Positions 3,964 through 25,263 of a stretch of 32,000 nt of DNA are shown here, piece after piece. Source of the DNA: Chloroflexota bacterium (lineage in GTDB: Bacteria > Chloroflexota > UBA11872 > VXOZ01); assembly GCA_963663275.1 (NCBI GenBank), contig OY760183.1, positions 1,083,683-1,115,682 on the forward strand. The letters are read 5' to 3'. Every line of letters begins with the position of its first letter. Within the stretch, counting starts at the first letter, position 1. The position numbers and the translations under genes are program-made. Under the pieces are notes generated by a model. That model saw nothing but the letters and a program-made list of their open reading frames with translations. It was not told the DNA's origin and did no database searches.

Positions 3964-4190
3964 GCGGTTTGCCTCTCCTGGACGCGCTAAAGCGCCTCAC
4001 CATCTTGAGCCTTGGCGGTCAGGCTGCTGCACATAGCCAAACACGCCCCAGTGTCCGTCACCGAGGCGTGCAATAGATTCAACTCTAAGAAGATGAGCGT
4101 CTCGCCGAGCAGCCGCTGCTGCGAGCCGCGGCGCAAGACGCCTTGCCTGGAACCGCCGTGCCGCCCCCCTTGCCGCCAAGCGGTTCAGGG

Positions 4191-4394
4191 CTAGTCTTGT
4201 TCCGGTTTCCCTCTGGAAAAGTGGCCTTCAATCAGCCCCTCGATGCGCGCCAAGCGTTCGCCGAAGTCCGACATGCGCGATTCGAGCCTGGAGACCCGCG
4301 TATCGAGGCTGCGAATTTGCAGCATAATGAACCCGCCAACGGTGAACGCCGATAAGATGCTCGCCAGTACGGTGGCAATGGTGTCGTTTTCCAT
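4191..4394 (-). CDS. Small (67 aa) membrane-anchored coiled-coil protein: N-terminal TM helix plus heptad region
   Basis: ORF 4191-4400. The second ATG (4394) lies 8 nt downstream of AAGGAG (complement of 4403-4408). IATVLASILSAFTVGGFIMLQI is hydrophobic; it is followed by RSLDTRVSRLESRMSDFGERLARIEGLIEG. G+C is lower than in the flanking genes. Confidence 0.6.
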   Translation of the reverse strand: MENDTIATVLASILSAFTVGGFIMLQIRSLDTRVSRLESRMSDFGERLARIEGLIEGHFSRGKPEQD

Positions 4395-4628
4395 GGTCAT
4401 GTCTCCTTAGTCTAAGCATAGCTGCCAAGTGTATGATAGGTCAAGCTGCCTGACATCTGTGGCAAGAGCGTTCTACCACTCCTGTACCAAATGATAGTAC
4501 GTCTCGGGCCAATTGAACACTTGAGGCACACCCGCGTGTATTCTCCGAGGATCTCCAGTCAGCAGAAGCCCTCATGCCAGCAAATCCATGCGGCGCATAG
4601 ATAGCAAGCACCGTAGGCGTGCGGGTCG

Positions 4629-5423
4629 CTACAAGGGCCTCGCACCGACAGGAGGCAAGAACAGCGCCTGAATCAACCCATCCGGATCCGACCAGCGCGA
4701 CACTCTGGATAGAGATCCCACGAGACTAAAGTCACCATCCGTCCAAATGTCGTTGGTGTCGTCGAAGAGGGATACGAAGCCGAGCGGCTCGCTCCGCGCT
4801 ACCGGCCCTAAATCGTGCCAGGTGGCTACTACCCGGTCGGTTATCCTGCGCGCCGCGGAACGGTTGTTGGCGCTGAGCACATTGACTAACACGGTGCGTC
4901 TGCGGGCGCGAACCTGAAAATCCACATTCCACGTACGATTTGAAACCCCTGTCCGCCTGGAGGCGCGTTCGAACGGTACGTTGTGCTTTTCGAGATAGTC
5001 GGCCACCTGACCTGTAATCGATGGCGGCGTGCGCGTGCGAAAGGTGAGCCATATATCGGCAACTCTCGACGCTACCTGCGCAGCCTGGACAATTGCGGCA
5101 GCCAATTCGCTGGGATGGCAATGCGTTTCAATGACGCCATTCTGAAACTCAACACCGTGGGTTAGGCAAATGTCCGCAACGAGCCCGGTCTGCTTAGGTG
5201 AAAGGCGCATAGAGGGCGACTGCGTGTACAGCCAGCGCATGGTCTCCCCAAAGTCTGACACCAGTACCGAGTCACCCTCGAACGCCAGGAATACGTCGAT
5301 TGCGTCTCCGTCCGGGTAGAGGAACGGCGTGCCAACCTGGTCGTAGCCCTCCTCTTCCGTGTACGAAAAGAGGGCGCCAAGTTCGCGCTGTACTTGTGCG
5401 ATGTTCGTCAGAGCAACGTTCAT
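4629..5423 (-). CDS. Uncharacterised 264-aa protein resembling a DUF1828 + DUF1829 fusion
   Basis: ATG at 5423 lies 7 nt after the stop of the upstream gene, with GGAAGGG upstream. The N-terminal ...GTPFLYPDGDAIDVFLAFEGDSVLVSDFGET... and C-terminal ...RTWNVDFQVRARRRTVLVNVLSANN... segments match my recollection of DUF1828 and DUF1829. Codon usage is richer in A/T endings than in host genes. Confidence 0.7.
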   Translation of the reverse strand: MNVALTNIAQVQRELGALFSYTEEEGYDQVGTPFLYPDGDAIDVFLAFEGDSVLVSDFGETMRWLYTQSPSMRLSPKQTGLVADICLTHGVEFQNGVIETHCHPSELAAAIVQAAQVASRVADIWLTFRTRTPPSITGQVADYLEKHNVPFERASRRTGVSNRTWNVDFQVRARRRTVLVNVLSANNRSAARRITDRVVATWHDLGPVARSEPLGFVSLFDDTNDIWTDGDFSLVGSLSRVSRWSDPDGLIQALFLPPVGARPL

Positions 5424-5430
5424 TGCCGCA

Positions 5431-5859
5431 TTAGCCCTTCCGCAACTCTCCGTTGTGCTGTATGCGTGCCTCCACGCAGAACTCTCTCCAAACCGCCGCC
5501 GGGTCAGCAGCCGACGCCGTTATGTCGTCAGGCACGTAGGCTCTCTTATCTCTATAGCGTTCCGACCAGCTATGCTTATGCTTTCTGCCGATCCGTTCGC
5601 CTTGCGGATTACGATGTATCTTTCCCATGTCAAGGCCATAGATGCGGCCCTCCGTCCGCAAGATGAGCGCGTAAGACAACCTTTGCGTCCTTGGATTATA
5701 GCTGCCATGAATGAATAGCGGCCAACCTACCTCCGATTGTACGGCGGCTCTGAATGTCCAGGCGGGCAAGTGGCTGCTGTCCTCTTTCCAAGCAATATTC
5801 CCCTCAATTCGCTTCGAGGCATCACTCAAAATGGAGGAGAAATCGGCATCGCTCAGCAA
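5431..5859 (-). CDS. Uncharacterised 142-aa protein with an H-x-N-P-x-G...H-K-H motif (possible His-Me-finger-like site)
   Basis: The only long ORF here. TTG start at 5859 with GGTAGG 4 nt upstream; the first in-frame ATG is codon 78. Stop at 5431-5433. Motif GKIHRNPQGERIGRKHKHSW (5572-5616). Rare AGA/ATA/AAT/CAT codons are present. Confidence 0.6.
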   Translation of the reverse strand: MLSDADFSSILSDASKRIEGNIAWKEDSSHLPAWTFRAAVQSEVGWPLFIHGSYNPRTQRLSYALILRTEGRIYGLDMGKIHRNPQGERIGRKHKHSWSERYRDKRAYVPDDITASAADPAAVWREFCVEARIQHNGELRKG

Positions 5860-5976
5860 AATGCCTACCGTTCCATAGTATCAAAGCGGTACGAGGAAAA
5901 GCATCGTCCTGCGCCTTGCCCCTCTTGCCGCAAGGCTTGTCGACGGCGCCTATAGCCCCATGGATGAGCGAACGAT

Positions 5977-7299
5977 TCAGTTCACCGCAGCCAAAGACCG
6001 CAGTTCCGCCGCGTTTTCCTGCACTTTCACGAAAGCGTCGGCGATGTCGTCCATGTCCGCTTGCGTGCCCAGGAAGGCCGGGTGGCCCATCCAGAGGGTT
6101 TCCTCGCGGCAGAGGCGTTCGGCTTCCGGGCATTCCGTCCGGCGGTAGTCCATTGTGCGGCCGTAGTAGTGGCTGGTGAGCGGGAAGCCGCTGCGCAGCG
6201 AACCGTGCAGGGCGTCCTGGAAGAGCGGGTGCTTGTGCAGGGGGCGCACGTAGCCGGCGCTGCACGGGACGCCTTCCGCGGCCACGGCCTTGGCGACGAC
6301 CTCGCGCGGCGCGCCGCCGAAAGCCTCGGCGTTCATGTACTTGAAGATGAAGATGTGGAGCGCGTTGCGCTTGACGAACGGATCCACGCGCACGTTCGCC
6401 AGACCTTCGATTTCGGCCAGGCGCGACGCGAGGTAGGTGCAATTCTCATGCCGGCGGGCCGCCCATTCCTCCAGGTTGGGGAATTGCGAGTGCAGGATCG
6501 CGCCCATGATCTCCGACATGCGGTAGTTCCAGGAGAGCACCGGAAACTGCGTGTCCACCGGGTCGTTCAGGTGGTCGTCCGCCAGGTCCACGTGCGAGCG
6601 CCAGAAGTCGTGGGCGTAGACCGCGCGCTTGTAGATCTCCTCGTTGTTGGTGGTCACGCAGCCGCCCTCGCCGCTGGTCAGGTTCTTGCTGGCCTGAAAG
6701 CTCCAACCGGCCGCGTCGCCCAGCGACCCCAGCTTACCCTGGGCGTGCATGCCGCCGTGGGCGTGGGCGCAATCCTCCAGCACCAGCAAATCGTGCTTGC
6801 GCGCGATGGCGTTGATGGCGTCCATGTCGGCGGGCAGGCCGCCGAAGTGCACGGCAAAGATGGCGCGGGTTTTGTCGGTGATGTGGTCTTCGATGAGGGC
6901 GGGATTGAGGTTGTAGGTCTCCGGGTCGATGTCCACGAACACGGGCACGGCGCCCACCTGCAACGGCGCGCTGGCGGTGGCCATGAACGAATACGGCGGC
7001 ACGATGACTTCATCGCCAATTTCCACGCCGGCCGCCAGCACGGCCACCTCCAACGCCGCGGTGCCGCTGCTCACGCAGAGGCCGTAGTCGCAGTCGTGAT
7101 AGCGCGCGTACGCCTGCTCGAACTCCCCCGTGCGCGTGCCGTCGCGCCGCCGGTTCCAGCGCTGGCTGCGCAGCACGTCCGTCACCGCGTCAACCGTCTC
7201 ATCCCCTACCAGCGGCCAACTGCCAAAGGGCGTCCGGCGCAATTTCGGGCCGCCGTTGATAGCTAACTTTGCCACGGCGCAAGGCCTCGCTTTCTGCAT
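5977..7299 (-). CDS. DegT/DnrJ/EryC1/StrS-family PLP-dependent aminotransferase
   Basis: 440-aa ORF with the family-typical FQASKNLTSGEGGCVTT (PLP lysine) and LAINGGPKLR N-terminus. The antisense ORF 6061-7266 is a shadow. Confidence 0.9.
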   Translation of the reverse strand: MQKARPCAVAKLAINGGPKLRRTPFGSWPLVGDETVDAVTDVLRSQRWNRRRDGTRTGEFEQAYARYHDCDYGLCVSSGTAALEVAVLAAGVEIGDEVIVPPYSFMATASAPLQVGAVPVFVDIDPETYNLNPALIEDHITDKTRAIFAVHFGGLPADMDAINAIARKHDLLVLEDCAHAHGGMHAQGKLGSLGDAAGWSFQASKNLTSGEGGCVTTNNEEIYKRAVYAHDFWRSHVDLADDHLNDPVDTQFPVLSWNYRMSEIMGAILHSQFPNLEEWAARRHENCTYLASRLAEIEGLANVRVDPFVKRNALHIFIFKYMNAEAFGGAPREVVAKAVAAEGVPCSAGYVRPLHKHPLFQDALHGSLRSGFPLTSHYYGRTMDYRRTECPEAERLCREETLWMGHPAFLGTQADMDDIADAFVKVQENAAELRSLAAVN

Positions 7300-7436
7300 G
7301 TCTTATCGCTCGTTTTCGCCATCAGTGTGCACCTATAGTATCATGGCCAAAACAGTGCGCAAGGTAACAGCCGAACAGGAGCGTCGTCCAGAGAAAGGGC
7401 GTTCGCCAGGGCTTGAAGAAGAATCGTCGAGAGGTG

Positions 7437-7841
7437 ATGAAGGTGCGCGTTAAGCTGCCCCACAGGGAGTTGTCCGACGCTTTCGTGGCGTTGAGCCATG
7501 CAGCCGCCGAGGCTGAAGAAGAGGGCTTTCAAATACCCTCTGACTTAGCAGTAGTCAATGCGAAACGCCTGTTGCATGAGATGTACGCGATTGCGCCGCA
7601 ACGCTTCGAGGTCTACCCCACACCTGACGCCGAGATCGCTATTCGCGCTTTGGCTCCCGGTAGATCGGTCATAGTGCTGTGCGAATCGGATGGAGAAGCG
7701 TTGTGCTTGGCCAACCTCAACAATGGCCGCAGACGCAAGAGATTTGATTCCGTGGATGCCCTGCCGGACCGCTTCTTGAAGAGAGCCCTCTTGGACTTGA
7801 AATTGGGGATATCTAGTCCTCACGGAGCACATTGCCCATGA
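7437..7841 (+). CDS. Hypothetical protein (about 134 aa), orphan; its stop overlaps the start of the downstream MR/MLE gene
   Basis: ORF 7413-7841. ATG at 7437 follows GAGAGG, but the start is uncertain (TTG 7413, GTG 7443 are alternatives). TGA 7839-7841 overlaps ATG 7838-7840 of the next gene (ATGA). Lower G+C (35/60 at 7561-7620). No recognisable domain. Confidence 0.45.
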   Translation: MKVRVKLPHRELSDAFVALSHAAAEAEEEGFQIPSDLAVVNAKRLLHEMYAIAPQRFEVYPTPDAEIAIRALAPGRSVIVLCESDGEALCLANLNNGRRRKRFDSVDALPDRFLKRALLDLKLGISSPHGAHCP

Positions 7842-8977
7842 AAATCGTCGACATGCACGTCCGCGCCTTCACCTACCCCTCCCGCATCGTGCGGGATACC
7901 GAAGGCCACACCCATCCCGGCCCGGAGCATGAAGCCACCCAATCGCTGCTCACCGTTGTCGCGGACGACGGCGCGGTCGGCTATTGCTTTGGCGCGCCGA
8001 GCCCCGGCGTGTTGGAGGACGTCATCAAGCCCGCCATCATGGGCGAAGACCCCATGTACCGCGAGCGCATCTGGAAGACCCTGCACCACTGGCAGCGCAT
8101 GTCCCGCGATTTGACCGACCGGGCGCTGGGCGCGGTGGACATGGCGATTTGGGACCTGGTGGGCCGCGCCCTGGGGCAGCCGGTCTACAAGCTGCTGGGC
8201 GCGACCCGCGACAAAGTGCCGGCCTACGCCAGCACCATGTGCGGCGACGAAATCGCGGGCGGCCTGAGCACGCCGGAGGAGTACGGCGCGTTCGCACTGC
8301 AATGCAAGGAGCGCGGCTATCCGGCTTTCAAGCTGCACACCTGGATGCCGCCGATCGCCTGGGCGCCGGACCCGAAGATGGACATCGCCGCCTGCGCCGC
8401 CGTGCGCGAGGCCGTGGGCGCTGAGATGGACCTCATGCTCGACTGCTACCACTTCTACAGCCGCGCGGATGCGCTATACATCGGCCGGGCGTTGGAAGAC
8501 CTCGACTACTACTGGTTCGAGGAGCCGATGGACGAGTTCAGCACGTCATCGTACGTCTGGCTGGCCGACCAGCTTGACATTCCCGTGGTCGGGCCGGAAA
8601 CCGCCGACGGCAAGATGTACACCCGCGCCGAGTGGCTTGCCCGGGGCGCGGCCGACATCAGCCGGGGCGGCGTGAGCGACGTGGGCGGCATTACGCCCCT
8701 GATGAAGGTCGTCCACCTCTGCGAGGCGTTCAACGTGCAGATGGAGGTGCACGGCGGCGGCCCCGGCAACCTGCACGCCCTCTGCGCCATGAACTACCCG
8801 GGCAAGTACTACGAACGCGGCCTTCTGCACCCCCACATCGACTACGAGGAAGTGGAACCCTGGCTCAACCGCAAAACCGACCCCATGGACAACACGGGCA
8901 ACGTCCACGTCTCCCAAGAGCCGGGCCTCGGCTGGGACATCGATTGGGACTACATCGACGCCCACACGGTGACTTGA
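7838..8977 (+). CDS. Mandelate racemase/muconate lactonizing enzyme family protein (enolase superfamily; sugar-acid dehydratase/cycloisomerase-like)
   Basis: ORF 7832-8977; ATG at 7838 with GGAG 11 nt upstream. It has the N-terminal capping domain and barrel motifs FKLHTW, MLDCYHFY and YWFEEP typical of MR/MLE members. Confidence 0.88.
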   Translation: MKIVDMHVRAFTYPSRIVRDTEGHTHPGPEHEATQSLLTVVADDGAVGYCFGAPSPGVLEDVIKPAIMGEDPMYRERIWKTLHHWQRMSRDLTDRALGAVDMAIWDLVGRALGQPVYKLLGATRDKVPAYASTMCGDEIAGGLSTPEEYGAFALQCKERGYPAFKLHTWMPPIAWAPDPKMDIAACAAVREAVGAEMDLMLDCYHFYSRADALYIGRALEDLDYYWFEEPMDEFSTSSYVWLADQLDIPVVGPETADGKMYTRAEWLARGAADISRGGVSDVGGITPLMKVVHLCEAFNVQMEVHGGGPGNLHALCAMNYPGKYYERGLLHPHIDYEEVEPWLNRKTDPMDNTGNVHVSQEPGLGWDIDWDYIDAHTVT

Positions 8978-8989
8978 ACACCAGGCTCC

Positions 8990-9226
8990 CTATGGCAGGA
9001 GCTTTATCAAGCCGACGGTGAGACTGGTCGTGAGCGTGACGTTGACCAACACAATCGTCAGCGCCATTTTGTAGAGGTCGATCTTGCTGGCGAGGCGGTT
9101 TAGTTTCTCGTCAAGGTACTCCTTTGTCGCCGCTTCACCGTTCCTGACCGTGACAACCGCCTCCGCCTGGGCTTCATCGAATCCCGCCGCTATGAGGGAC
9201 TTCACCATCTTATGTGTGTCAGCCAT
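8990..9226 (-). CDS. DUF1640-like small protein with a C-terminal TM helix
   Basis: ORF 8990-9253. MADTHKMVKSLIAAGFDEAQAEAVV matches the DUF1640 N-terminal pattern. A coiled coil is followed by the hydrophobic tail ALTIVLVNVTLTTSLTVGLIKLL. The start could be 9226, 9241 or 9253. Lower G+C (32/60 at 9001-9060). Confidence 0.6.
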   Translation of the reverse strand: MADTHKMVKSLIAAGFDEAQAEAVVTVRNGEAATKEYLDEKLNRLASKIDLYKMALTIVLVNVTLTTSLTVGLIKLLP

Positions 9227-9364
9227 AGCAATCTCAGTCATCCGAAGATGCATTCTTGCTCAGTTTCCTCTATCAAAGCTACCCCAAATCGGCTCTTCAC
9301 CCCAGACATGCTTCGCAACGCCGCGTCACGCAGGTAGTACCGGAAGGGCGCGGTCACGCGCCAA

Positions 9365-11839
9365 CTAAGCAGGCTGCGGTGCCGGCGTGGGGGTAGGCGT
9401 AGGAATAGGCGTGGGGGTAGGCGTGGGGGTAGGCGTCGGTGTCGGCGTGGGACTGGCCGGACACGTTACCGAGATGGAGGTCGTGGTTTGTGGGCCCCAG
9501 GCGTCGCGATAGGTCTCACCATCGCCCTTTGCCACGCCGTTGACGTTGAACGTGAGCGTCTGGCCGCCTTGCGAGGCTGAGCACACGGTGGCCCCGTAGT
9601 CCTTCGAATAGGGTTGGCCCTTCTTGAAGTCTCCGGTCCGGCCGGTCTGGGTATTGAAGAGATTGCCGCTCGTCTTTACTTCCGCAACCCCGCTTGCGAG
9701 CGTTACCGTGAGCGTGACCGTTATCGCGTCCCCACTGGGACTGCTCGACAGGCTGAGCGAGGGCGAGGGCGGCAGCGCTAGCGTCGGGGTAGGCGTGGGC
9801 GTGGGCGGTGGCTCCCCAGGGCAGGTTACCGAGATGGTGGACGTGCTTGGCGAACTCCAAGCGTCACGGTAGATTACGCCGTCGCCATTCGCCACCACGT
9901 TGACGGTGAAGTCAAGCGTCTGGCCGGCTTGTCCGGATGAGCACACGTGTTCCGAAAAGCTTGCCGAATACGTGCCTTGGTTATTGCCCCGCGACCAGCC
10001 GCTCGTGAAGAGATTGCCGCTGAACCGTATCCCGTCAACCCCGTTCTCGAACGTCACCGACGCGATGACCATCATAGAGAGGCCGTTATTGGGGACGCTC
10101 GACGTAGTGCTGGAGAGGGACAGGGAAGGCGCGGATGGCAGCGGCAGTGTGGGCGTCGGCACGGGCGTTGGCGTGGCGCCGCCGGGGCAGGTTACCGAGA
10201 TGGTGGACGTGCCCTGCGGGCCCCAGGCGTCGCGATAGATCGCGCCGTCGCCCTTTGCCACGCCGTTGACGGCAAAGCTCAGCGTCTGGCCGCCTTGCGC
10301 GGCGGTGCAAACCTGGGCTGTGTAGTCTACGGAATACGGCTGACCCTTCAGGAAGTTCCCGGTCCGGCCGGTCTGGGTGTTGAAGAGGTTGCCGCTGGTC
10401 CGCGCTTCCGCTACCCCGTATGGAATCGTTACCGTGAGCGTAATCGTTATGTCGTTCTCATTGGGACTACTCGACAGGCTGAGTGAGGGCGACGGCGGCA
10501 GCGGCAATGTTGTGGGCGTAGGCGAACCACCCGGCGTTGGCGTGGTCTGCGGGACGGTCGGCGTGGTCTGCGGTACCGTTGGCGTGACTGATGGCGCCGG
10601 TGTTGGGCCTCCAGGCGTGGGCGTTGACCCAGGATCCACCGAGGGCGGCGGCGCGGGCCCCGTTCCAGGCGGGGGCGCCGGCAGCGCCGTGGTCGGGAAC
10701 GGACACGTCACGGTGACACCAATGTAATCGCTCCAGTCCGACCAGGCCTGCCGGTAGGTTTCACCGTCGCCAAACGCGCGCAGGCGCAGGAAGTGCGTAG
10801 CCGTCTCGCCGGCCTGGCTGGGCAGGCAGACCAAGGCGGACGTAGGCGGCGTCTGCTCGCTCGTCCACGTGTGGCTGCCGGCAATGCCGTCGGTTTCAAT
10901 CGAGGCCACGCCTTCCGGCCAGGAATAGCTCCACCGCACTTCCACCACGCCTTTGTCCGACCACGCGTTGTAGTTCTCCACGTGAATGCCGTAGTCAAGC
11001 GATACCGCCGGGACTGGCGGCGGCGGCAGCCCGCCGTCGGCCGGCGTCGGCGTCAGCGCGGGCGTGGGAATATGCCCCGACGCGTCGGGGCAGGACGCCG
11101 TGTGCGTGAGCAAGCGCAACTGGCCCGGGCCGGAGCGGTAGGTCACGCCATCGCCCGCGGAGGTGAGAATGACCGCAATCGCCAGCGACTGATCCGCGTC
11201 CGCCGGAGGGCAGACATAGGCATGGTAACTCTCGGCGTTGCCGTCGCTTTCCAGCAGCGAGAACGGCGCGCCGCCCGACCAGGATATGCTGCCGCTGGTG
11301 TCTGACGGCCACTGCACGGAAAAGACGACTTCGACGAGCAGGTCCTGCCGGCCGGAAGCGCCGCTGCCAATGCTCCCCGCGGGAGCGGGCGCTAACGGCA
11401 GTACGGGAGTCGGCGTTGCCTGGGGTTCCTGCGCGTCTGAATCGCTGTCTGGAACGTAATCAGGTTCCTGCGTGCCTGAATCGCTGCCGGCCACGTAATC
11501 GGGTTCCCACGGGAACCGCTCGCTATTCAGGCGCTGCTGGAGTCCATACGGGCCGTTGACCCAGGTGTAGTGGCCGTCGGTGAAGGCCGTATAGTTGTCG
11601 GACTTGCGCCAGACCATGAGCCCGCCGGTGGTGGACTGGGTGCTGTCGCCGTTGGCGCTATGCTGCTCGTTGCTCAAGCAGTCGCCCACAGTGTCATGGC
11701 CGATGAGGTCGCGCAGGGTCTTGAAACCAAGACGGAATTCGCAATCGGCAGCCGTTGCCGACGACACGACAAGCGCGGCAAACGCGAAACCAAGCAAAAT
11801 TCCGACAACAGAACGTCGTAGCCGGGCCGGCAGAAACAT
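9365..11839 (-). CDS. Secreted 824-aa repeat protein: signal peptide, N-terminal Cys-containing domain, five ~100-aa Cys-pair modules joined by Pro/Thr linkers, (PT)n tail
   Basis: ORF 9365-11890; the internal ATG at 11839 gives MFLPARLRRSVVGILLGFAFAALVVSSATA|ADCEF (signal-peptide-like). Modules each contain ...VC...GDG..YR.AW...TCP. The C-terminus is PTPTPTPTPTPTPIPTPTPTPAPQPA. Confidence 0.85.
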   Translation of the reverse strand: MFLPARLRRSVVGILLGFAFAALVVSSATAADCEFRLGFKTLRDLIGHDTVGDCLSNEQHSANGDSTQSTTGGLMVWRKSDNYTAFTDGHYTWVNGPYGLQQRLNSERFPWEPDYVAGSDSGTQEPDYVPDSDSDAQEPQATPTPVLPLAPAPAGSIGSGASGRQDLLVEVVFSVQWPSDTSGSISWSGGAPFSLLESDGNAESYHAYVCPPADADQSLAIAVILTSAGDGVTYRSGPGQLRLLTHTASCPDASGHIPTPALTPTPADGGLPPPPVPAVSLDYGIHVENYNAWSDKGVVEVRWSYSWPEGVASIETDGIAGSHTWTSEQTPPTSALVCLPSQAGETATHFLRLRAFGDGETYRQAWSDWSDYIGVTVTCPFPTTALPAPPPGTGPAPPPSVDPGSTPTPGGPTPAPSVTPTVPQTTPTVPQTTPTPGGSPTPTTLPLPPSPSLSLSSSPNENDITITLTVTIPYGVAEARTSGNLFNTQTGRTGNFLKGQPYSVDYTAQVCTAAQGGQTLSFAVNGVAKGDGAIYRDAWGPQGTSTISVTCPGGATPTPVPTPTLPLPSAPSLSLSSTTSSVPNNGLSMMVIASVTFENGVDGIRFSGNLFTSGWSRGNNQGTYSASFSEHVCSSGQAGQTLDFTVNVVANGDGVIYRDAWSSPSTSTISVTCPGEPPPTPTPTPTLALPPSPSLSLSSSPSGDAITVTLTVTLASGVAEVKTSGNLFNTQTGRTGDFKKGQPYSKDYGATVCSASQGGQTLTFNVNGVAKGDGETYRDAWGPQTTTSISVTCPASPTPTPTPTPTPTPTPIPTPTPTPAPQPA
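9440..10540. repeat. Intragenic tandem triplication (about 360-366 bp units) inside the secreted repeat protein gene
   Basis: The marker gttaccgagatgg recurs at 9465, 9825 and 10191 (spacing 360 and 366 bp). Units 1 and 3 encode nearly identical modules (NLFNTQTGRTG[D/N]F.KGQPYS.DY); the middle unit has diverged. Confidence 0.85.
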
Positions 11840-14326: not shown

Positions 14327-15526
14327 CCCCAATGCTGTCGCATTAACCGCTGAAGCGGAGTGCGCGGGGCAAGGAAGCGGCAAGCGTTCGCAGCCAGGAG
14401 ACGCGAGTGCTGCTAGCTGGACGTAGTTCCTCCAAGAGCTGTGCGAGCACGGCCACGATGCTGGCGACCACCAAGGTGAGCCAGACGGCGGCACGGCTGT
14501 ATCCAATGGGGCGGATTGCGCCCAACACATGCTTCAGCCAGCGAAAGAACAACTCGATCTGCCAGCGCTTGCGGTAGAGCCACACCACCTCTGGAGCGCT
14601 CAGGTCGTGACGGTCGGTGATGAAGTGGTGCGTTTTCCCCTGCGCCGTGCGGCTGACCACCAGGCGCATCTCTGCTAAGACCGCGCCGTTGCGGTTGTTG
14701 GCGCTGCCCAGCACGATCACCGCATCCCGCACCACCACGTCTCCTGCCGGCGTGCGCGCGCCGGTCACGGCACGCTCGCGCACCACGCAGTAGGCAGCCT
14801 GCGGGTGCAGGCGCGTCACGAAGTGCACACCTGCCTCCCGCATCTGCGCAAAGACCCGATGCGCGTAGTAGCCCAAGTCTAGCAAGAGCGTCCAGCCCTG
14901 CCACCGCGCCAGACCCCAACGCTTGAACGCCGTCACGTCATTCGCGTCCGCCAACGTCACCTGTAACCGCGTCGGCACCTGTGTGTCCACGGCATATGCC
15001 ATCTGCAGCCGTACTCCCGCCTCATGCCCTTGGTGCACGCTCCACGGACTACACGCCGCGCTCAGCGCCAGAAAACTGCCGTCCACCGCCACCACCCGCC
15101 GTACGTGCGCCGGCCCACGTGCTTGCACCTGCCGCGCCAACACCTCCCACGCCGCCGTAAAACACGCCAACGGCCGCGTCTGGGATGAACGTGCCAACTG
15201 ACTGTAACTTATGCCCGACGCTAAACCCAACCGCCGTCGCCACACCACATCACCCATCTGCAGCCCATGGCTTTGCCGCAGGCTCCCACTCCCACTCAGC
15301 ACGTGACCAAGCAGCATCCCCACATGCGCTCGCACCGAAAAATGCTTGCGATAGCGATCCGCTCCCCTCACCCGTGCTGCCGCCGTCAGCGCCGGCTCCA
15401 ACTCACGCCATAGCCGCCGTCCTACTCCTACCGTCTGTGCTACCATTAGCCAGGGCTCCTTTGTAAGATATATCGCTCATTACCTTACTAAAGTAGCCCC
15501 TTCACTTTAATGCGACAACATTGGGG
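14327..15526 (-). mobile_element. IS4-family insertion sequence (about 1.2 kb) inserted into a family A REP hairpin
   Basis: Terminal inverted repeats (cccc)aatgctgtcgcattaa at 14327-14346 and ttaatgcgacaacatt(gggg) at 15507-15526, with 1 mismatch. The flanks ...gcgggggacaagcccc and ggggacaagcccccgcgctac... rebuild one intact REP. A single DDE transposase ORF lies inside. Confidence 0.85.
14343..15446 (-). CDS. IS4-family DDE transposase
   Basis: 367-aa ORF. Candidate D (VVAVDGSF), D (LLLDLGYYA) and E within the YREK signature YRKRWQIELFFRWLK (Y-x2-R-x3-E-x6-K). The stop codon lies inside the left terminal repeat. Confidence 0.9.
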   Translation of the reverse strand: MVAQTVGVGRRLWRELEPALTAAARVRGADRYRKHFSVRAHVGMLLGHVLSGSGSLRQSHGLQMGDVVWRRRLGLASGISYSQLARSSQTRPLACFTAAWEVLARQVQARGPAHVRRVVAVDGSFLALSAACSPWSVHQGHEAGVRLQMAYAVDTQVPTRLQVTLADANDVTAFKRWGLARWQGWTLLLDLGYYAHRVFAQMREAGVHFVTRLHPQAAYCVVRERAVTGARTPAGDVVVRDAVIVLGSANNRNGAVLAEMRLVVSRTAQGKTHHFITDRHDLSAPEVVWLYRKRWQIELFFRWLKHVLGAIRPIGYSRAAVWLTLVVASIVAVLAQLLEELRPASSTRVSWLRTLAASLPRALRFSG

Positions 15527-15585
15527 ACAAGCCCCCGCGCTACGCCTGTGCGGCAGAATTGGGAAAAGGCCCCTGCGCTACGGGT
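15523..15585. repeat. Extended family A unit (right half of the REP split by the IS)
   Basis: ggggacaagcccccgcgctacgcctgtgcggcagaattgggaaaaggcccctgcgctacg aligns with 14233-14295. Confidence 0.8.
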
Positions 15586-15653
15586 TGCGAAATCATCCCA
15601 ATCTTGTACTGCAAGAGCGCACACGAACGGAATGCACGCGCTTCGCATAGAAA

Positions 15654-15689
15654 GAGAGGCCGTTTCCCGCGCCCAGGAAACGGCCTCTC
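15654..15689 (-). terminator. Intrinsic-terminator-like hairpin downstream of the yeeE/yeeD-like operon
   Basis: 14-bp GC-rich stem gagaggccgtttcc / ggaaacggcctctc with an 8-nt loop, 24 nt after the TAG at 15713-15715. On the minus-strand transcript it is followed by UUUCUAU. Confidence 0.65.
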
Positions 15690-15712
15690 CTCAATCTCAG
15701 GGGAACGGATCG

Positions 15713-16000
15713 CTATTCCGAAACGTTCAACGCCGCCAGTTGCTCCTGCAGATTGGCCAGGATGTCTTGCGGCTTGGCGACCTTCTCGGACTTGCGCAGT
15801 GTCAGCCGCCACTCCGAGTTGGCGGCGTCCTCGATGGTCGTCTCGTAGCCGTTCTTGGCCGCTTCCCACGGAATGGTGCCCAGGGCCGGCGCGTGGTCGG
15901 TGAGCACCTCCAGGTTCTCGTCGCCGTCCAGCTTCTTTAGCGCCTCGGCGGTTTTCATCATGGGATACGGGCAGATTTCACCGCGCACGTCGATTTTCAT
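15713..16000 (-). CDS. yeeD: TusA/YeeD-family sulfur-carrier protein
   Basis: 95 aa. The N-terminal KIDVRGEICPYPMMKTAEAL carries the C-P-x-P active-site motif of the TusA/SirA family. AGGAG lies 9 nt upstream. It sits directly downstream of a YeeE/YedE gene, as in the yeeE-yeeD pair. Confidence 0.85.
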   Translation of the reverse strand: MKIDVRGEICPYPMMKTAEALKKLDGDENLEVLTDHAPALGTIPWEAAKNGYETTIEDAANSEWRLTLRKSEKVAKPQDILANLQEQLAALNVSE

Positions 16001-18621: not shown

Positions 18622-18698
18622 CGGGGTGTGGCGCAGCCTGGTAGCGCGCTTGAATGGGGTTCAAGAGGTCCCCGGTTCAAATCCGGGCACCCCGACCA
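18622..18698 (+). tRNA. tRNA-Pro, anticodon GGG, with encoded CCA
   Basis: Manual cloverleaf: acceptor CGGGGTG/CACCCCG, D stem GCGC/GCGC, anticodon stem CTTGA/TCAAG with loop AT-GGG-GT, 5-nt variable loop, T stem CCCGG/CCGGG with loop TTCAAAT, discriminator A, CCA. Total 77 nt. Confidence 0.93.
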
Positions 18699-19926: not shown

Positions 19927-20478
19927 TTAGAATATGTCGACCGGATCCAACGTAAAGCCGCGCACCGTAGGCGAGGTGATTTCCTGCCCGGGGCCGTAGA
20001 CGCCCGCGACGGCAAAGCGGTGCTCTTCCAGCAGCAGCAGGGTCACGGTTCCGGCGTCCGGGTCTACCAGCCAGTACTCTTTCACGCCGTGCGCGGCGTA
20101 GAGCGCCCGCTTGAACGACCGGTCGCGGGCGGCGGTGGCGGGAGAAAGGATTTCAACAACCATGTCGGGCGCGCCCCGAACGTTTTCGCCGCCGCGCAGC
20201 ACGCGCTCGCGTTCTCTGGCAACGAAAACCAGGTCCGGCTGGACGACGTCGGTGTCCGACAGCACCACGTCGCAGGGCGCGGCAAAGACCTCTCCCAGGC
20301 CTCGCTCCCGCGCGAACACGTGCAAGAGCGCGCCCAGCCGCATGGCGACTCGCTGGTGGGAGAGGCGCGGCGCCGGCGCCACTACTAACGCTCCGTCCAA
20401 GAGTTCGTAGCGCTCATCGTCCGGCGTATCCCGATAGTCGTCATAGGTCAACTTGATTGCAGGCGTGGAACTCGCCAT
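19927..20478 (-). CDS. Uma2-family (DUF820) putative restriction-endonuclease-fold protein
   Basis: 183 aa with family-typical YELLDG, VVQPDLVFV, PDMVVEILSP and GVKEYWLVDP. AGGAAGG lies 5 nt upstream of the ATG at 20478. Confidence 0.9.
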   Translation of the reverse strand: MASSTPAIKLTYDDYRDTPDDERYELLDGALVVAPAPRLSHQRVAMRLGALLHVFARERGLGEVFAAPCDVVLSDTDVVQPDLVFVARERERVLRGGENVRGAPDMVVEILSPATAARDRSFKRALYAAHGVKEYWLVDPDAGTVTLLLLEEHRFAVAGVYGPGQEITSPTVRGFTLDPVDIF

Positions 20479-23122: not shown

Positions 23123-25048
23123 CTATTCGGCTTTGGCGGCGGCCGCGGCTTGTTCGGCCGGCTGGCCGTCCGCGGCGGCCTGAGCGGCGCCGTCCTGGGA
23201 GGGTTCAGTTTCGGCCGGCGGCGTGTCCTGCGCCGGCGCGCCTTTCACCCGGTCGACTAGGCGGCGCAACTGTTGATCGTCGGGCGCGACCGCCATGCCC
23301 GCCTCGCCGGCCGCCAGGGCCTCGGCCTCGTTGCCGGTTTCCAGGTGCGTCCAGACCAGCATCCGGTGGAGAAAGGCCTGCGCCGGGGTATCGTCGGCCT
23401 GCTTTGCCAGTTCGAGCGCCTGCTTGAACTGCTCCAGCGCGTCCGCGAACTTGCCGCGCTCGTAGCAGATGCGGCCCAGCACGGCCACCGGCAGGTGATT
23501 TTCCGGGTTATCCAGCACAAGCTGTTCCGCCACCATCGCCGCCCGCGTATGCTCGCCGGCTACGGCCAGTTGTTGGGCCAGGGCCAGCGCCACGTCCAGG
23601 TTGTCCGCATCCTGCCGCGCCGCCTGCTCCAGCGTCGCCAGCGCCTCCCGGTGTTCGCCTTGCAGCATGTGCTGGAAGGCCAGGGCCAAAGCGGCGGCAA
23701 CGGAGCCCGGCGCGGGCGCGGCGGGCGCGGCGGGCGTGGAGTCCGCTTGCGCCGAATCCGCTGCCGGGCTTGGGGCGGCGGGAGCCGCCGCTTCCCTGGC
23801 GTCTGCGTCCACGTCCGCGTCCCGTCGCTGCTCCGGCTGCGAGCGCTTGCGTCCGCCGCTATCCCGTTGAGCGGATGACCCTCGCGATTCCGCGCGGGCC
23901 GAGTCCGGCGCCCCGCGCGACTGGCGGGCGGGGGGCGACTGCCGGGAGCGCGCGCCGCGCCCCCGCTGGCCTTGCGGCTGGCCGTTGCTGCTCTTGGCGG
24001 CGCGTTCCAACTCCTGTTTGCGCGTTTGCACGTCCTTGAACCGGCCGTCCAGGCCGCTGCAGCGGGTATAGGCTTCCAGCGCCTTTTCCGATTCGCCCAG
24101 TTTCTCGTAGACCTGACCCAGGTCGTAGAACGCCTCCGGCTCGTCGTCCTCTTGGCGCACCACGTCTTCCAGTTCACGCGCCGCGTCGCCGAAGCGTCCC
24201 AACGCGGCCAGGGTGAGCGCCAGCCGGTGCCGGTAGCGTGCCTGGCGCGGCATCAAGCGCGCGGCCTGGGAGAAGTGGTTGAGCGCCTGCGATAGCTCGT
24301 TGCGCTCGTAGGCGCTGCGGCCCAGGCTGTACAGGCGGGCGGCGAGCATGTTCCGGTCCACGTGAGTATCCAGCGATTCACCCAGCGACCGTGACGGGGC
24401 CAGGGGCGCTTCCGGCGGCGCGCCCAGCGTCTGGTCCGACTTATCCTTCTCGTGCTCGATCACGTGGGAGAGCAGCAGCCCCAGATCGATGTAGCCGTCG
24501 GCCACCAACTTCAAGCCGGGATCGCTGCCCACGCCAAAGTTGCCCACCATCACCTGCACGCCCCGGTCCCGCAGGCGCGAGAATACCGGGATGAAGTCGC
24601 CGTCTCCGGTCAGCGCAAAGGCTTTATCGTAGAACCCCACGAAGTCGAGCATGTCCAGCGACATCTCGATGTCCAGGTTGCCCTTGTAGCCGCCGCCGGG
24701 GAGTTCTTTCGAGCGCTTGTGCACGACGCGAAAGCCGTGGGTCACCAGATAGTCGAGTTGCTGGCGAAAGCCCTCCACGCGCAGGTCCGTGCCGGTATAG
24801 TAATAAGCTCCCAGGAGCGTATCGTCTCCTCGGAGCTGGTCGCGCACCAGGTGCCACGGCACGCGCATGATGCCGATATCCCGGGCCTGGCGTTCGATGT
24901 TGGCCGCGTCGATGAAAATCATCAGTCGATGCGGCTTGGTTTGCAGCGGCGTGCCGATTGCGGATCTTTGCGATTCGAGCGGGTGCCCGCAGGCAACACA
25001 GATGAGGCTATTCCCCTTATTCAAACTTCCACACGTTGGACAATTCAT
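23123..25048 (-). CDS. Zn-ribbon + NYN/LabA-like (PIN-fold RNase) + TPR protein with an Arg/Ser/Gln-rich disordered insert
   Basis: ORF 23123-25135; ATG at 25048 gives MNCPTCGSLNKGNSLICVACGH (CxxC..CxxC). NYN motifs IFIDAANI, KGNLDIEM and LTGDGDFIPV. TPR-like helices lie on both sides of the tract GQPQGQRGRGARSRQSPPARQSRG.... Confidence 0.85.
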   Translation of the reverse strand: MNCPTCGSLNKGNSLICVACGHPLESQRSAIGTPLQTKPHRLMIFIDAANIERQARDIGIMRVPWHLVRDQLRGDDTLLGAYYYTGTDLRVEGFRQQLDYLVTHGFRVVHKRSKELPGGGYKGNLDIEMSLDMLDFVGFYDKAFALTGDGDFIPVFSRLRDRGVQVMVGNFGVGSDPGLKLVADGYIDLGLLLSHVIEHEKDKSDQTLGAPPEAPLAPSRSLGESLDTHVDRNMLAARLYSLGRSAYERNELSQALNHFSQAARLMPRQARYRHRLALTLAALGRFGDAARELEDVVRQEDDEPEAFYDLGQVYEKLGESEKALEAYTRCSGLDGRFKDVQTRKQELERAAKSSNGQPQGQRGRGARSRQSPPARQSRGAPDSARAESRGSSAQRDSGGRKRSQPEQRRDADVDADAREAAAPAAPSPAADSAQADSTPAAPAAPAPGSVAAALALAFQHMLQGEHREALATLEQAARQDADNLDVALALAQQLAVAGEHTRAAMVAEQLVLDNPENHLPVAVLGRICYERGKFADALEQFKQALELAKQADDTPAQAFLHRMLVWTHLETGNEAEALAAGEAGMAVAPDDQQLRRLVDRVKGAPAQDTPPAETEPSQDGAAQAAADGQPAEQAAAAAKAE

Positions 25049-25121
25049 TACAATACGTCGATCCTCACTCTTTCCAATTTGCTTCGCACTACCAAGGCCG
25101 CGTGTCCCGCGCGCCCTTTGC

Positions 25122-25130
25122 TGGTATGAT
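25122..25130 (+). promoter_or_regulatory. Possible extended -10 element (TGgTATGAT) for aroE, palindromic with a minus-strand TGgTATCAT
   Basis: ctggtatgataccac at 25121-25135 is a near-palindrome that reads as TG-n-TATGAT on the plus strand and TG-n-TATCAT on the minus strand. It lies between the divergent aroE and NYN genes. No good -35 exists on either side. Confidence 0.25.
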
Positions 25131-25263
25131 ACCACAGCCTACGCAATGCAATCGTCTGGCGGGGGACGGGCGCCTGCGCGACCTGGCTGGGCGCGGGGCC
25201 GTTTTCTCCCATTGCGGGCCGCGCGCCGGGGCCGGCGCGCCACGCAGCCGCCAAGGAGCATCT

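Follow-up and report, generated by a model that had tools for sequence, protein, structure and literature searches.

The closest described counterpart of the gene pair analyzed here is PDC-M24, one of the multi-gene phage-defence candidates (PDC-M) catalogued in PADLOC (Payne et al. 2024, bioRxiv 10.1101/2024.01.29.577857). The pair lies on the minus strand of a 32,000-nucleotide stretch of contig OY760183.1 from a Chloroflexota bacterium (in the following, the window) and consists of gene 1 (5431–5859), encoding a protein of 142 amino acids (aa), and gene 2 (4629–5423), encoding a protein of 264 aa. The PDC-M candidates were nominated by their "guilt-by-embedding" in BREX, DISARM or type I restriction-modification loci, and the 145 candidates of that study are called untested by its authors (Payne et al. 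2024, bioRxiv 10.1101/2024.01.29.577857). PDC-M24 itself corresponds to cassette CAS_00098, for which the cassette table gives a count of 153, and the same table lists a second partner family for its B subunit (FAM_01408>>FAM_00065, count 15) (Payne et al. 2024, bioRxiv 10.1101/2024.01.29.577857). Both window proteins match the hidden Markov models (HMMs) of the A and B subunits over nearly their full length and in the same order, and the embedding of homologues is reproduced in our survey. What sets the window copy apart is that it stands alone, on the chromosome, within a metabolic gene cluster of a Chloroflexota bacterium; moreover, PDC-M24 is itself a prediction. With slightly better than even confidence, we interpret genes 1 and 2 as a stand-alone PDC-M24-type candidate anti-phage (conflict) cassette that represents an old insertion in a variable Chloroflexota site.

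A second point of comparison is PrrC of the EcoprrI type I locus. The prrC gene occupies an hsdS-[x]-hsdR position, and homologues of the pair are likewise found between genes for restriction-modification subunits. PrrC invariably occurs together with a restriction-modification locus, which keeps it silent (PMC3458546). By analogy, the PrrC-like placement of the homologues suggests that the pair may work as a 'guard of the restriction enzyme'. Unlike the pair, which is composed of a DUF6978 protein and a protein with DUF1828 and a nuclease-like fold, PrrC is a single protein uniting an ABC-ATPase with an anticodon nuclease, and the two systems share no sequence or domain similarity. Searches with PADLOC, Pfam and NCBIfam yielded no match to such PrrC-type domains in either protein of the pair. 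In addition, the window copy differs from PrrC in having no restriction-modification partner nearby.

Two further known systems invite comparison. The CRISPR ancillary proteins Can2, Card1 and Cdn1 also join an N-terminal sensor to a C-terminal nuclease of the restriction-endonuclease fold, and Foldseek aligns 164–241 gene 2 columns with them. However, the N-terminus of the gene 2 product is a DUF1828 domain (weakly YbjN-like) instead of CARF, its catalytic motif is not evident, the template modelling scores (TM-scores) are around 0.3 and no sequence similarity exists. HipAD (DS-6) is a two-gene defence system validated by DefensePredictor, in which DS-6B combines DUF3037 with DUF1829 (PMC13092281). 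It thereby contains the domain that an earlier interpretation of the window from its nucleotide sequence (the sequence-only reading) had assigned to gene 2; unlike DS-6, gene 2 and its homologues have no detected DUF1829, and the pair lacks a HipA-like kinase.

The gene pair belongs to the PDC-M24 family

The sequence-only reading had described three minus-strand open reading frames (ORFs) between the DegT aminotransferase gene and the gene for a 598-aa protein, and the ORF calls recovered all three at these places. As it had also noted, gene 1 starts with TTG and runs for a long distance without ATG, its first internal methionine being residue 78, and 7 nucleotides (nt) separate its stop codon from the ATG of gene 2. 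The TTG start is supported because homologues of the protein align from residue 1.

No family had been recognized for gene 1 in that reading. Its product does, however, match Pfam DUF6978 (E 4e-13; 50.2 bits at a gathering cut-off of 29.6) and PADLOC PDC-M24A (PDLC04533; E 3.1e-64), the latter with residues 1–140 on HMM positions 1–140 of 151. Gene 2 had been taken for a fusion of DUF1828 and DUF1829. The first half of this assignment held, since DUF1828 matches residues 32–121 (E 1e-11) with 45.4 bits at a Pfam cut-off of 22. The second half did not: a PF08862-type profile for DUF1829 gave no match in gene 2 at E<=0.1, and none at E<=5 in gene 2 or any of 41 homologues. Instead, residues 9–255 align to positions 6–254 of the 256 positions of PADLOC PDC-M24B (PDLC04540; E 3.5e-80). 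With the A gene followed by the B gene, adjacent and on the same strand, the pair fits the PADLOC arrangement, and we regard its membership in the PDC-M24 family as practically certain. NCBIfam holds no model for either protein, and PHROGs returned only families of unknown function for them. The proposal of an uncharacterized defence or toxin module is thus borne out in so far as the pair matches a catalogued phage-defence candidate, but the family is already listed as such and hence is not an unrecognized one. In the literature searched, no paper names PDC-M24 in its text.

Conservation and predicted structures of both proteins

The gene 1 product (protein A) shares with its homologues the motif GRIYGLD...H.NP...KHKH.W. 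The conserved residues comprise H82-x-N84-P85, W98, C128 and H135, and H94 and H96 of the KHKH stretch are invariant. Judging from this conservation, the histidine cluster (H82, H94 and H96, plus C128) probably forms a metal site, and a preprint mentions in passing a probable metal site in DUF6978. An AlphaFold2 model built from 39 sequences reached a mean predicted local distance difference test (pLDDT) score of 95.6 and consists of an N-terminal helix, a mainly antiparallel beta core and a C-terminal helix. Comparison of this fold with the PDB gave no significant match, the best being a CdiI immunity protein (E 0.3), and a search of the gene 1 profile against PDB sequences was empty. In BFVD, the sole good match was one uncharacterized siphovirus protein (TM-score 0.62). 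DUF6978 comprises 587 representatives at 50% identity, nearly all of which are stand-alone proteins of ~150 aa, and domain fusions that could give a clue to its function are almost absent among them.

The gene 2 product (protein B) is composed of a DUF1828 domain (residues ~20–130) and a C-terminal domain (~135–255), and its AlphaFold2 model likewise shows two domains (pLDDT 85). The N-terminal domain carries an invariant acidic cluster formed by D38, D40, D43, D57 and E60, and in Foldseek searches this half is weakly similar to YbjN, DR_1245 and RPA0323 (E 0.014–0.055). The C-terminal half matches PD-(D/E)xK-fold nucleases with Foldseek probabilities of 0.97–1.0. Among these are Bax1 (8gy8; E 5.9e-4) and AF1548 (1y88; E 8e-4, probability 1.00, root-mean-square deviation 4.3 Å over 126 columns), and further matches include Can2/Card1/Cdn1, the R2 RLE domain and BstEII. 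The C-terminal domain is therefore predicted, on the basis of the model, to have a restriction-endonuclease-like alpha/beta core fold. A search of the gene 2 profile against PDB sequences was empty. Within this domain, predicted strand 2 bears the invariant D168, but predicted strand 3 (LVxVLS) contains neither an acidic residue nor a lysine; the other invariant acidic residues of the domain (D204, D221, D222 and D225) lie elsewhere.

Homologues of the pair are frequently embedded in type I restriction-modification loci

Homologues of gene 2 were detected in 526 clusters and in 421 stretches of species-representative genomes. The closest genome is that of a Chloroflexota metagenome-assembled genome (MAG) with 71% identity, and all others are at ~50%. 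The taxa represented include Acidobacteriota, Latescibacterota, Proteobacteria, Nitrospirota, Chlorobiota, Planctomycetota, Spirochaetota, Dehalococcoidia and more. The co-occurrence of the two genes that the sequence-only reading proposed to examine is pronounced: of 79 loci from about 15 phyla, 65 have a gene 1 homologue immediately ahead of gene 2 in the same orientation.

For a survey of the neighbours, we used 53 loci with full flanks, considered the three nearest ORFs on each side and scanned 184 ORFs in total. In other phyla, the association with type I restriction-modification genes is strong: hsdS is found within three ORFs upstream, in the same orientation, in 20 of the 53 loci; 20 loci have an HsdR-like gene downstream of the pair, and 10 have both. 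When the 184 neighbouring ORFs were analyzed with PADLOC, at least 20 type I specificity, at least 11 methyltransferase and at least 8 restriction subunits were identified. We relied on the HsdS and HsdR counts together with the PADLOC tallies because an iterative HsdM profile drifted into HsdS sequences. Other neighbours of homologous loci match the IetA and pAgo/SIR2 models. The neighbour survey hence reproduces the embedding signal and places the pair in an hsdS-[x]-hsdR slot.

Several loci carry B without A. In four of these (L006, L011, L014 and L075), an RmrA/CapP-like protein of about 386 aa (positions about 8300–9970 of these loci) is encoded directly upstream of B; we take this protein to be a regulator of the HTH-ImmA type. 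One further locus without A has an IetA homologue upstream of B. Since the RmrA/CapP-like protein replaces A in four loci, it is suggested that B is the core effector and A a replaceable control element. In several long-read MAGs (L012, L015, L023, L026, L041 and L043), the gene 1 homologue is split over two frames, and these copies are either pseudogenes or the product of assembly indels.

The pair is an old insertion at a variable chromosomal site

In the window, the pair sits between the DegT gene and the 598-aa gene, and its neighbours encode DegT, a sulfatase, an enolase-family enzyme and a 598-aa protein of unknown function. The sequence-only reading had called the region compositionally foreign on the basis of G+C counts of six 60-nt lines and an excess of rare codons. 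All six counts were exact upon recounting, and the G+C dip is real, with 56.6% for 4191–5976 vs 65.1% for the whole window. This segment is about the lowest-G+C 1.8-kb stretch of the 32 kb, as only 0.1% of windows of this size are equally low. Genes 1 and 2 have a G+C content at third codon positions (GC3) of 0.64 and 0.68, respectively, vs 0.86–0.90 for four flanking genes (sulfatase, 598-aa gene, DegT and enolase-family gene). Rare codons are indeed in excess: AGA occurs 19.7 times per 1000 codons in this segment vs 0.5 in the flanks, ATA 12.3 vs 0 times, and codons ending in A or T account for 34% vs 12%.

The pair occupies this DegT/598-aa site in six related Chloroflexota contigs as well. 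The order DegT-gene1-gene2-598aa is found in L001 (gene 2 identity 81%) as well as in L086 and L087 (66%). In L085 (77%), a gene for a 636-aa protein is interposed (DegT-636aa-gene1-gene2-598aa), and in L003 (71%) one for a 276-aa protein (DegT-276aa-gene1-gene2-594aa). L084 (88%) shows the order gene1-gene2-[598-aa N-terminus/DegT C-terminus fragment]-276aa-598aa. The pair is missing from three relatives, and the presence/absence polymorphism that had been proposed for comparison thus exists. L099 and L100 have the order DegT-gene3-598aa, gene 3 being the small ORF next to the pair in the window, and in L088, which is more distantly related (598-aa protein 63%, DegT 75%), the DegT and 598-aa genes lie 26 nt apart with nothing in between; this empty site is the sole locus with the 598-aa protein from a metagenome scan. 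In their divergence from the window, L099 and L100 (DegT 87%) are comparable to the contigs with the pair. By blastn, window positions 5978–4462 have no counterpart in L099 or L100, and the pair therefore is an insertion of ~1.5 kb right after the DegT stop codon.

The relatives thus carry the same genes at this locus, but their composition is not host-like. The low GC3 is kept in L001 (0.54–0.62 for the pair vs 0.81–0.83 for the flanks) and in L003 (0.61–0.65 vs 0.86–0.87). Both genes of the pair are kept by selection, since the ratio of nonsynonymous to synonymous substitution rates (dN/dS) against relatives is 0.17–0.22 for gene 1 and 0.14–0.23 for gene 2, and hence 0.14–0.23 for the pair; the corresponding ratios are 0.11–0.13 for DegT and 0.15–0.19 for the 598-aa gene. 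Accordingly, the atypical composition is genuine, but a recent arrival is contradicted by the occurrence in six relatives at the same site, the retained low GC3 and the purifying selection: the insertion is old and common to a clade, yet polymorphic within it. The dS of the pair is similar to that of the flanks, about 0.6, for L001 and L085, and exceeds it for L003 (0.81 vs 0.30–0.48) and L086 (1.6 vs 0.53–0.79). Because of this excess, the alleles of the pair are either older than the flanks or were exchanged apart from them, which fits a conflict gene without proving one.

The spacer between the DegT stop codon and gene 1 (5860–5976, minus strand) holds a conserved block, TGATACTATGGAACGGTAGG, at about 5883–5864, which is kept in L001 (GATACTATGGAGCGGTAG), L086 (GATACAATGGAGTGGTAG) and L003. 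From its sequence, this block may be read as a putative extended -10 box together with a Shine-Dalgarno-like GGTAGG 4 nt ahead of the TTG start codon; a simple consensus promoter scan made no call here. On the other side, the pair cassette ends in a non-coding 3' tail (4462–4628, minus strand). The proximal part of this tail is common only to pair-carrying loci, and its distal part occurs also in L099, which is without the pair.

We also looked for marks of the insertion event. Weakly similar strings at the two edges of the segment had been pointed out before. They match at 13 of 16 positions (5919–5934 vs 4164–4179), which is within chance: in a shuffle test, a mean of 0.66 matches was obtained and 13 of 100 shuffles gave at least two. 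Besides being at chance level, att-like edge repeats were rejected as L001 does not retain the upstream copy; the downstream string (4164–4179) is part of the gene 3 cassette. An insertion linked to a tRNA gene was discarded, the two predicted tRNAs (10596 and 18622) being far off, as was one linked to an integrase, given that the only transposase gene (14343–15446) sits 8 kb away.

The variable site (3964–5976) occurs in at least six states, namely empty, with gene 3 only, with the pair only, with the pair and gene 3, with a secreted-protein paralogue and the pair, and as the tandem arrangement of L084. In the latter, a fragment of the 598-aa N-terminus fused to a DegT C-terminus fragment separates two different cargos. 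The 276-aa and 636-aa genes of L003, L084 and L085 encode signal-peptide paralogues of the N-terminus of the 841-aa protein of the window, and the idea that they are additional defence genes was dropped in favour of their being secreted-protein paralogues.

Gene 3 is a separate small membrane-protein gene

Gene 3 (4191–4394, minus strand) encodes a protein of 67 aa, the longest form of its ORF (4191–4400) corresponding to 69 aa. The start at 4394 is supported because homologues are called as 67-aa proteins: of ten homologues, the six closest are 79–99% identical, and five of these are called at this length. The N-terminal hydrophobic (transmembrane) helix, the heptad-like coiled-coil region and the AAGGAG site that the sequence-only reading had described can all be read from the sequence. 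The gene has its own sigma-70-like promoter at 4444–4415 (TTGACC-18-TATGCT), which is conserved in L099. With a dN/dS of 0.03–0.08 at a dS of ~1, gene 3 is a real gene.

The earlier notion of a three-gene islet, however, gave way to two independent cassettes. A counterpart of gene 3 lies beside the pair in 0 of 86 other pair loci. L099 and L100 have gene 3 but not the pair at the same site (DegT-gene3-598aa), and gene 3 also occurs, again without the pair, at unrelated loci in L096–L098 and L101. Gene 3 hence adjoins the pair by chance and is not a component of the module, and in annotation it should stay unbundled from the pair.

Elsewhere in the window, an ORF at 8990–9253 (minus strand) encodes a protein of 87 aa that has a coiled coil and, at its C-terminus, a transmembrane helix. 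It shows a weak CCDC90-like/DUF1640 match (E 4e-6), which is below the Pfam cut-off, and its N-terminus resembles a 116-aa gene product encoded next to the gene 3 homologues in L096–L098. By sequence resemblance, this suggests that a family of small coiled-coil membrane proteins may be scattered in this lineage.

Proposed function and alternative explanations

Defence or conflict is the likeliest function of the pair, but whether the PDC-M24 family truly defends against phages or mobile elements is, in our estimate, an evenly balanced question. If it does, B would act as the effector: its N-terminal DUF1828 domain may sense a protein or ligand, and its C-terminal nuclease-fold domain may bind or cut nucleic acid. 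A, which would be co-translated and is probably metal-binding, may restrain or trigger B. For copies embedded in restriction-modification loci, the trigger may be interference of a phage with the type I enzyme, as for PrrC, and the window copy would have to work without such a context. The main hint to these roles is that A is swapped for an HTH-ImmA regulator in some loci, and the specific assignment of B as nuclease-like effector and A as its regulator is a tentative one that we consider rather improbable as it stands. A broader version has somewhat better prospects, although we would still call it possible rather than probable: that PDC-M24 does act in defence by means of a new effector pair, in which A has an undescribed fold with a histidine cluster and B joins DUF1828 to a degenerate restriction-endonuclease fold. 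In many bacteria it may then serve as a PrrC-style backup that responds when a phage disables the type I restriction enzyme, and in this Chloroflexota lineage it would have been retained as a stand-alone system with allele turnover at a fixed chromosomal hotspot.

A number of observations weigh against a defence function carried out in this way. In the literature searched, no experimental report of defence by PDC-M24 was found, and in one study of eight PADLOC candidates, a set to which PDC-M24 did not belong, protection was observed for four of the eight. The pair family has no match by tblastn in a plasmid collection or in a collection of isolated phages, and IMG/VR contains only 7 loci. In the window, Pfam and PADLOC identified no restriction-modification or other defence gene in the flanks of the pair. 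Because its cargo includes secreted-protein paralogues, the DegT/598-aa site is a general hotspot and not a defence island. At the protein level, A has no functional analogue in the PDB or BFVD, and the Foldseek TM-scores of gene 2 are low (0.27–0.46). As no canonical D...(D/E)xK motif is apparent in gene 2, the C-terminal domain may be non-catalytic.

An alternative explanation is a toxin-antitoxin or addiction module, in which the small, upstream and co-translated A would neutralize B and the pair would persist by post-segregational killing and stabilize its surroundings (restriction-modification loci or the present hotspot, for instance) without a direct anti-phage role. The compact build of two genes with a 7-nt junction and the small gene first, the patchy spread across phyla, the regulator in place of A at loci without A and the allele turnover at the locus are all in line with it. 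Yet searches of Pfam, NCBIfam and PADLOC assigned neither protein to a toxin or antitoxin family, A has no recognizable DNA-binding fold, and plasmids and phages, on which addiction modules thrive, very rarely carry the pair. The vertical retention of the pair at one chromosomal site over a considerable divergence (dS 0.3–1.6) under purifying selection on both genes also argues against such a module. We therefore judge an addiction module to be unlikely, bearing in mind that toxin-antitoxin function and defence are not mutually exclusive. Still less probable, in our view, is an accessory role in type I restriction-modification, in which the pair would be, for example, a regulator, assembly or restriction-alleviation factor instead of an independent defence system, and the window copy an orphan whose former partner lies elsewhere or was lost. 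This idea draws on the finding that 10 to 20 of 53 loci have the pair in the hsdS-[pair]-hsdR slot, in the same orientation, but 33 of the 53 loci have no hsdS nearby. Moreover, the Chloroflexota clade keeps both genes intact (dN/dS ~0.2) with no adjacent restriction-modification genes, which argues for a function independent of restriction-modification, and known residents of the slot such as PrrC are defence effectors (PMC3458546).

The position between DegT and the 598-aa gene, conserved in six relatives and under purifying selection, might also reflect a housekeeping or pathway role tied to the sugar-modification and sulfatase cluster. However, L088 and L099/L100 have the cluster but no pair, in other phyla the pair adjoins restriction-modification genes and not genes of this pathway, and the codon usage of the pair is sharply unlike that of the flanks in every relative, so that such a role appears very improbable. 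The version in which all three genes act together, gene 3 providing a membrane effector or third component, has even less to recommend it, and we assign it next to no weight: gene 3 does adjoin the pair on the same strand and has a below-average G+C content, but it is missing from all 86 other pair loci, is found without the pair in L099/L100, L096–L098 and L101, and has its own promoter that is conserved in L099.

Validation of PDC-M24 as a defence system would bring in a family of two proteins, the smaller of which lacks any structural or functional analogue, and would provide the second case after PrrC of a cassette living in type I restriction-modification operons. To the description of the family, the window adds an instance in Chloroflexota in which it occurs alone and is stably inherited at one site, with a clear empty state and alternative cargo states of that site. 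It further adds the structure predictions, that is, a restriction-endonuclease-like C-terminal domain for B and a confident fold for A that has no solved relative.

Other features of the window

In the rest of the window, the only candidate defence genes are two that lie 14–18 kb from the pair. The first (19927–20478, minus strand) encodes a putative restriction endonuclease of the Uma2 family (Pfam E 6e-37) and matches PDC-S03 (E 8.5e-38), another PADLOC candidate, which consists of a single gene. The second (23123–25135, minus strand) encodes a 670-aa protein with an N-terminal NYN ribonuclease domain and long TPR arrays, with a weak match to a PADLOC NYN/TPR model.

An ORF of 142 aa at 7413–7841 (plus strand) has no family match and a low GC3 of 0.64, and it shares 10 nt with the start of the enolase-family gene. 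All relatives have this ORF at the same position, but it diverges rapidly, with 66–74% identity vs 91–94% for the adjoining enzyme. The transposase gene at 14343–15446 (minus strand) is of the DDE_Tnp_1 (IS4-type) family and lies beside a G+C dip at ~15400–15800. ARAGORN predicted a tRNA-Leu(CAG) at 10596–10683 (plus strand), which is antisense within the ORF of the 841-aa secreted protein, rich in proline and threonine (PT-rich), and is probably a false positive. It also predicted a tRNA-Pro(GGG) at 18622–18698, which lies in another G+C dip.

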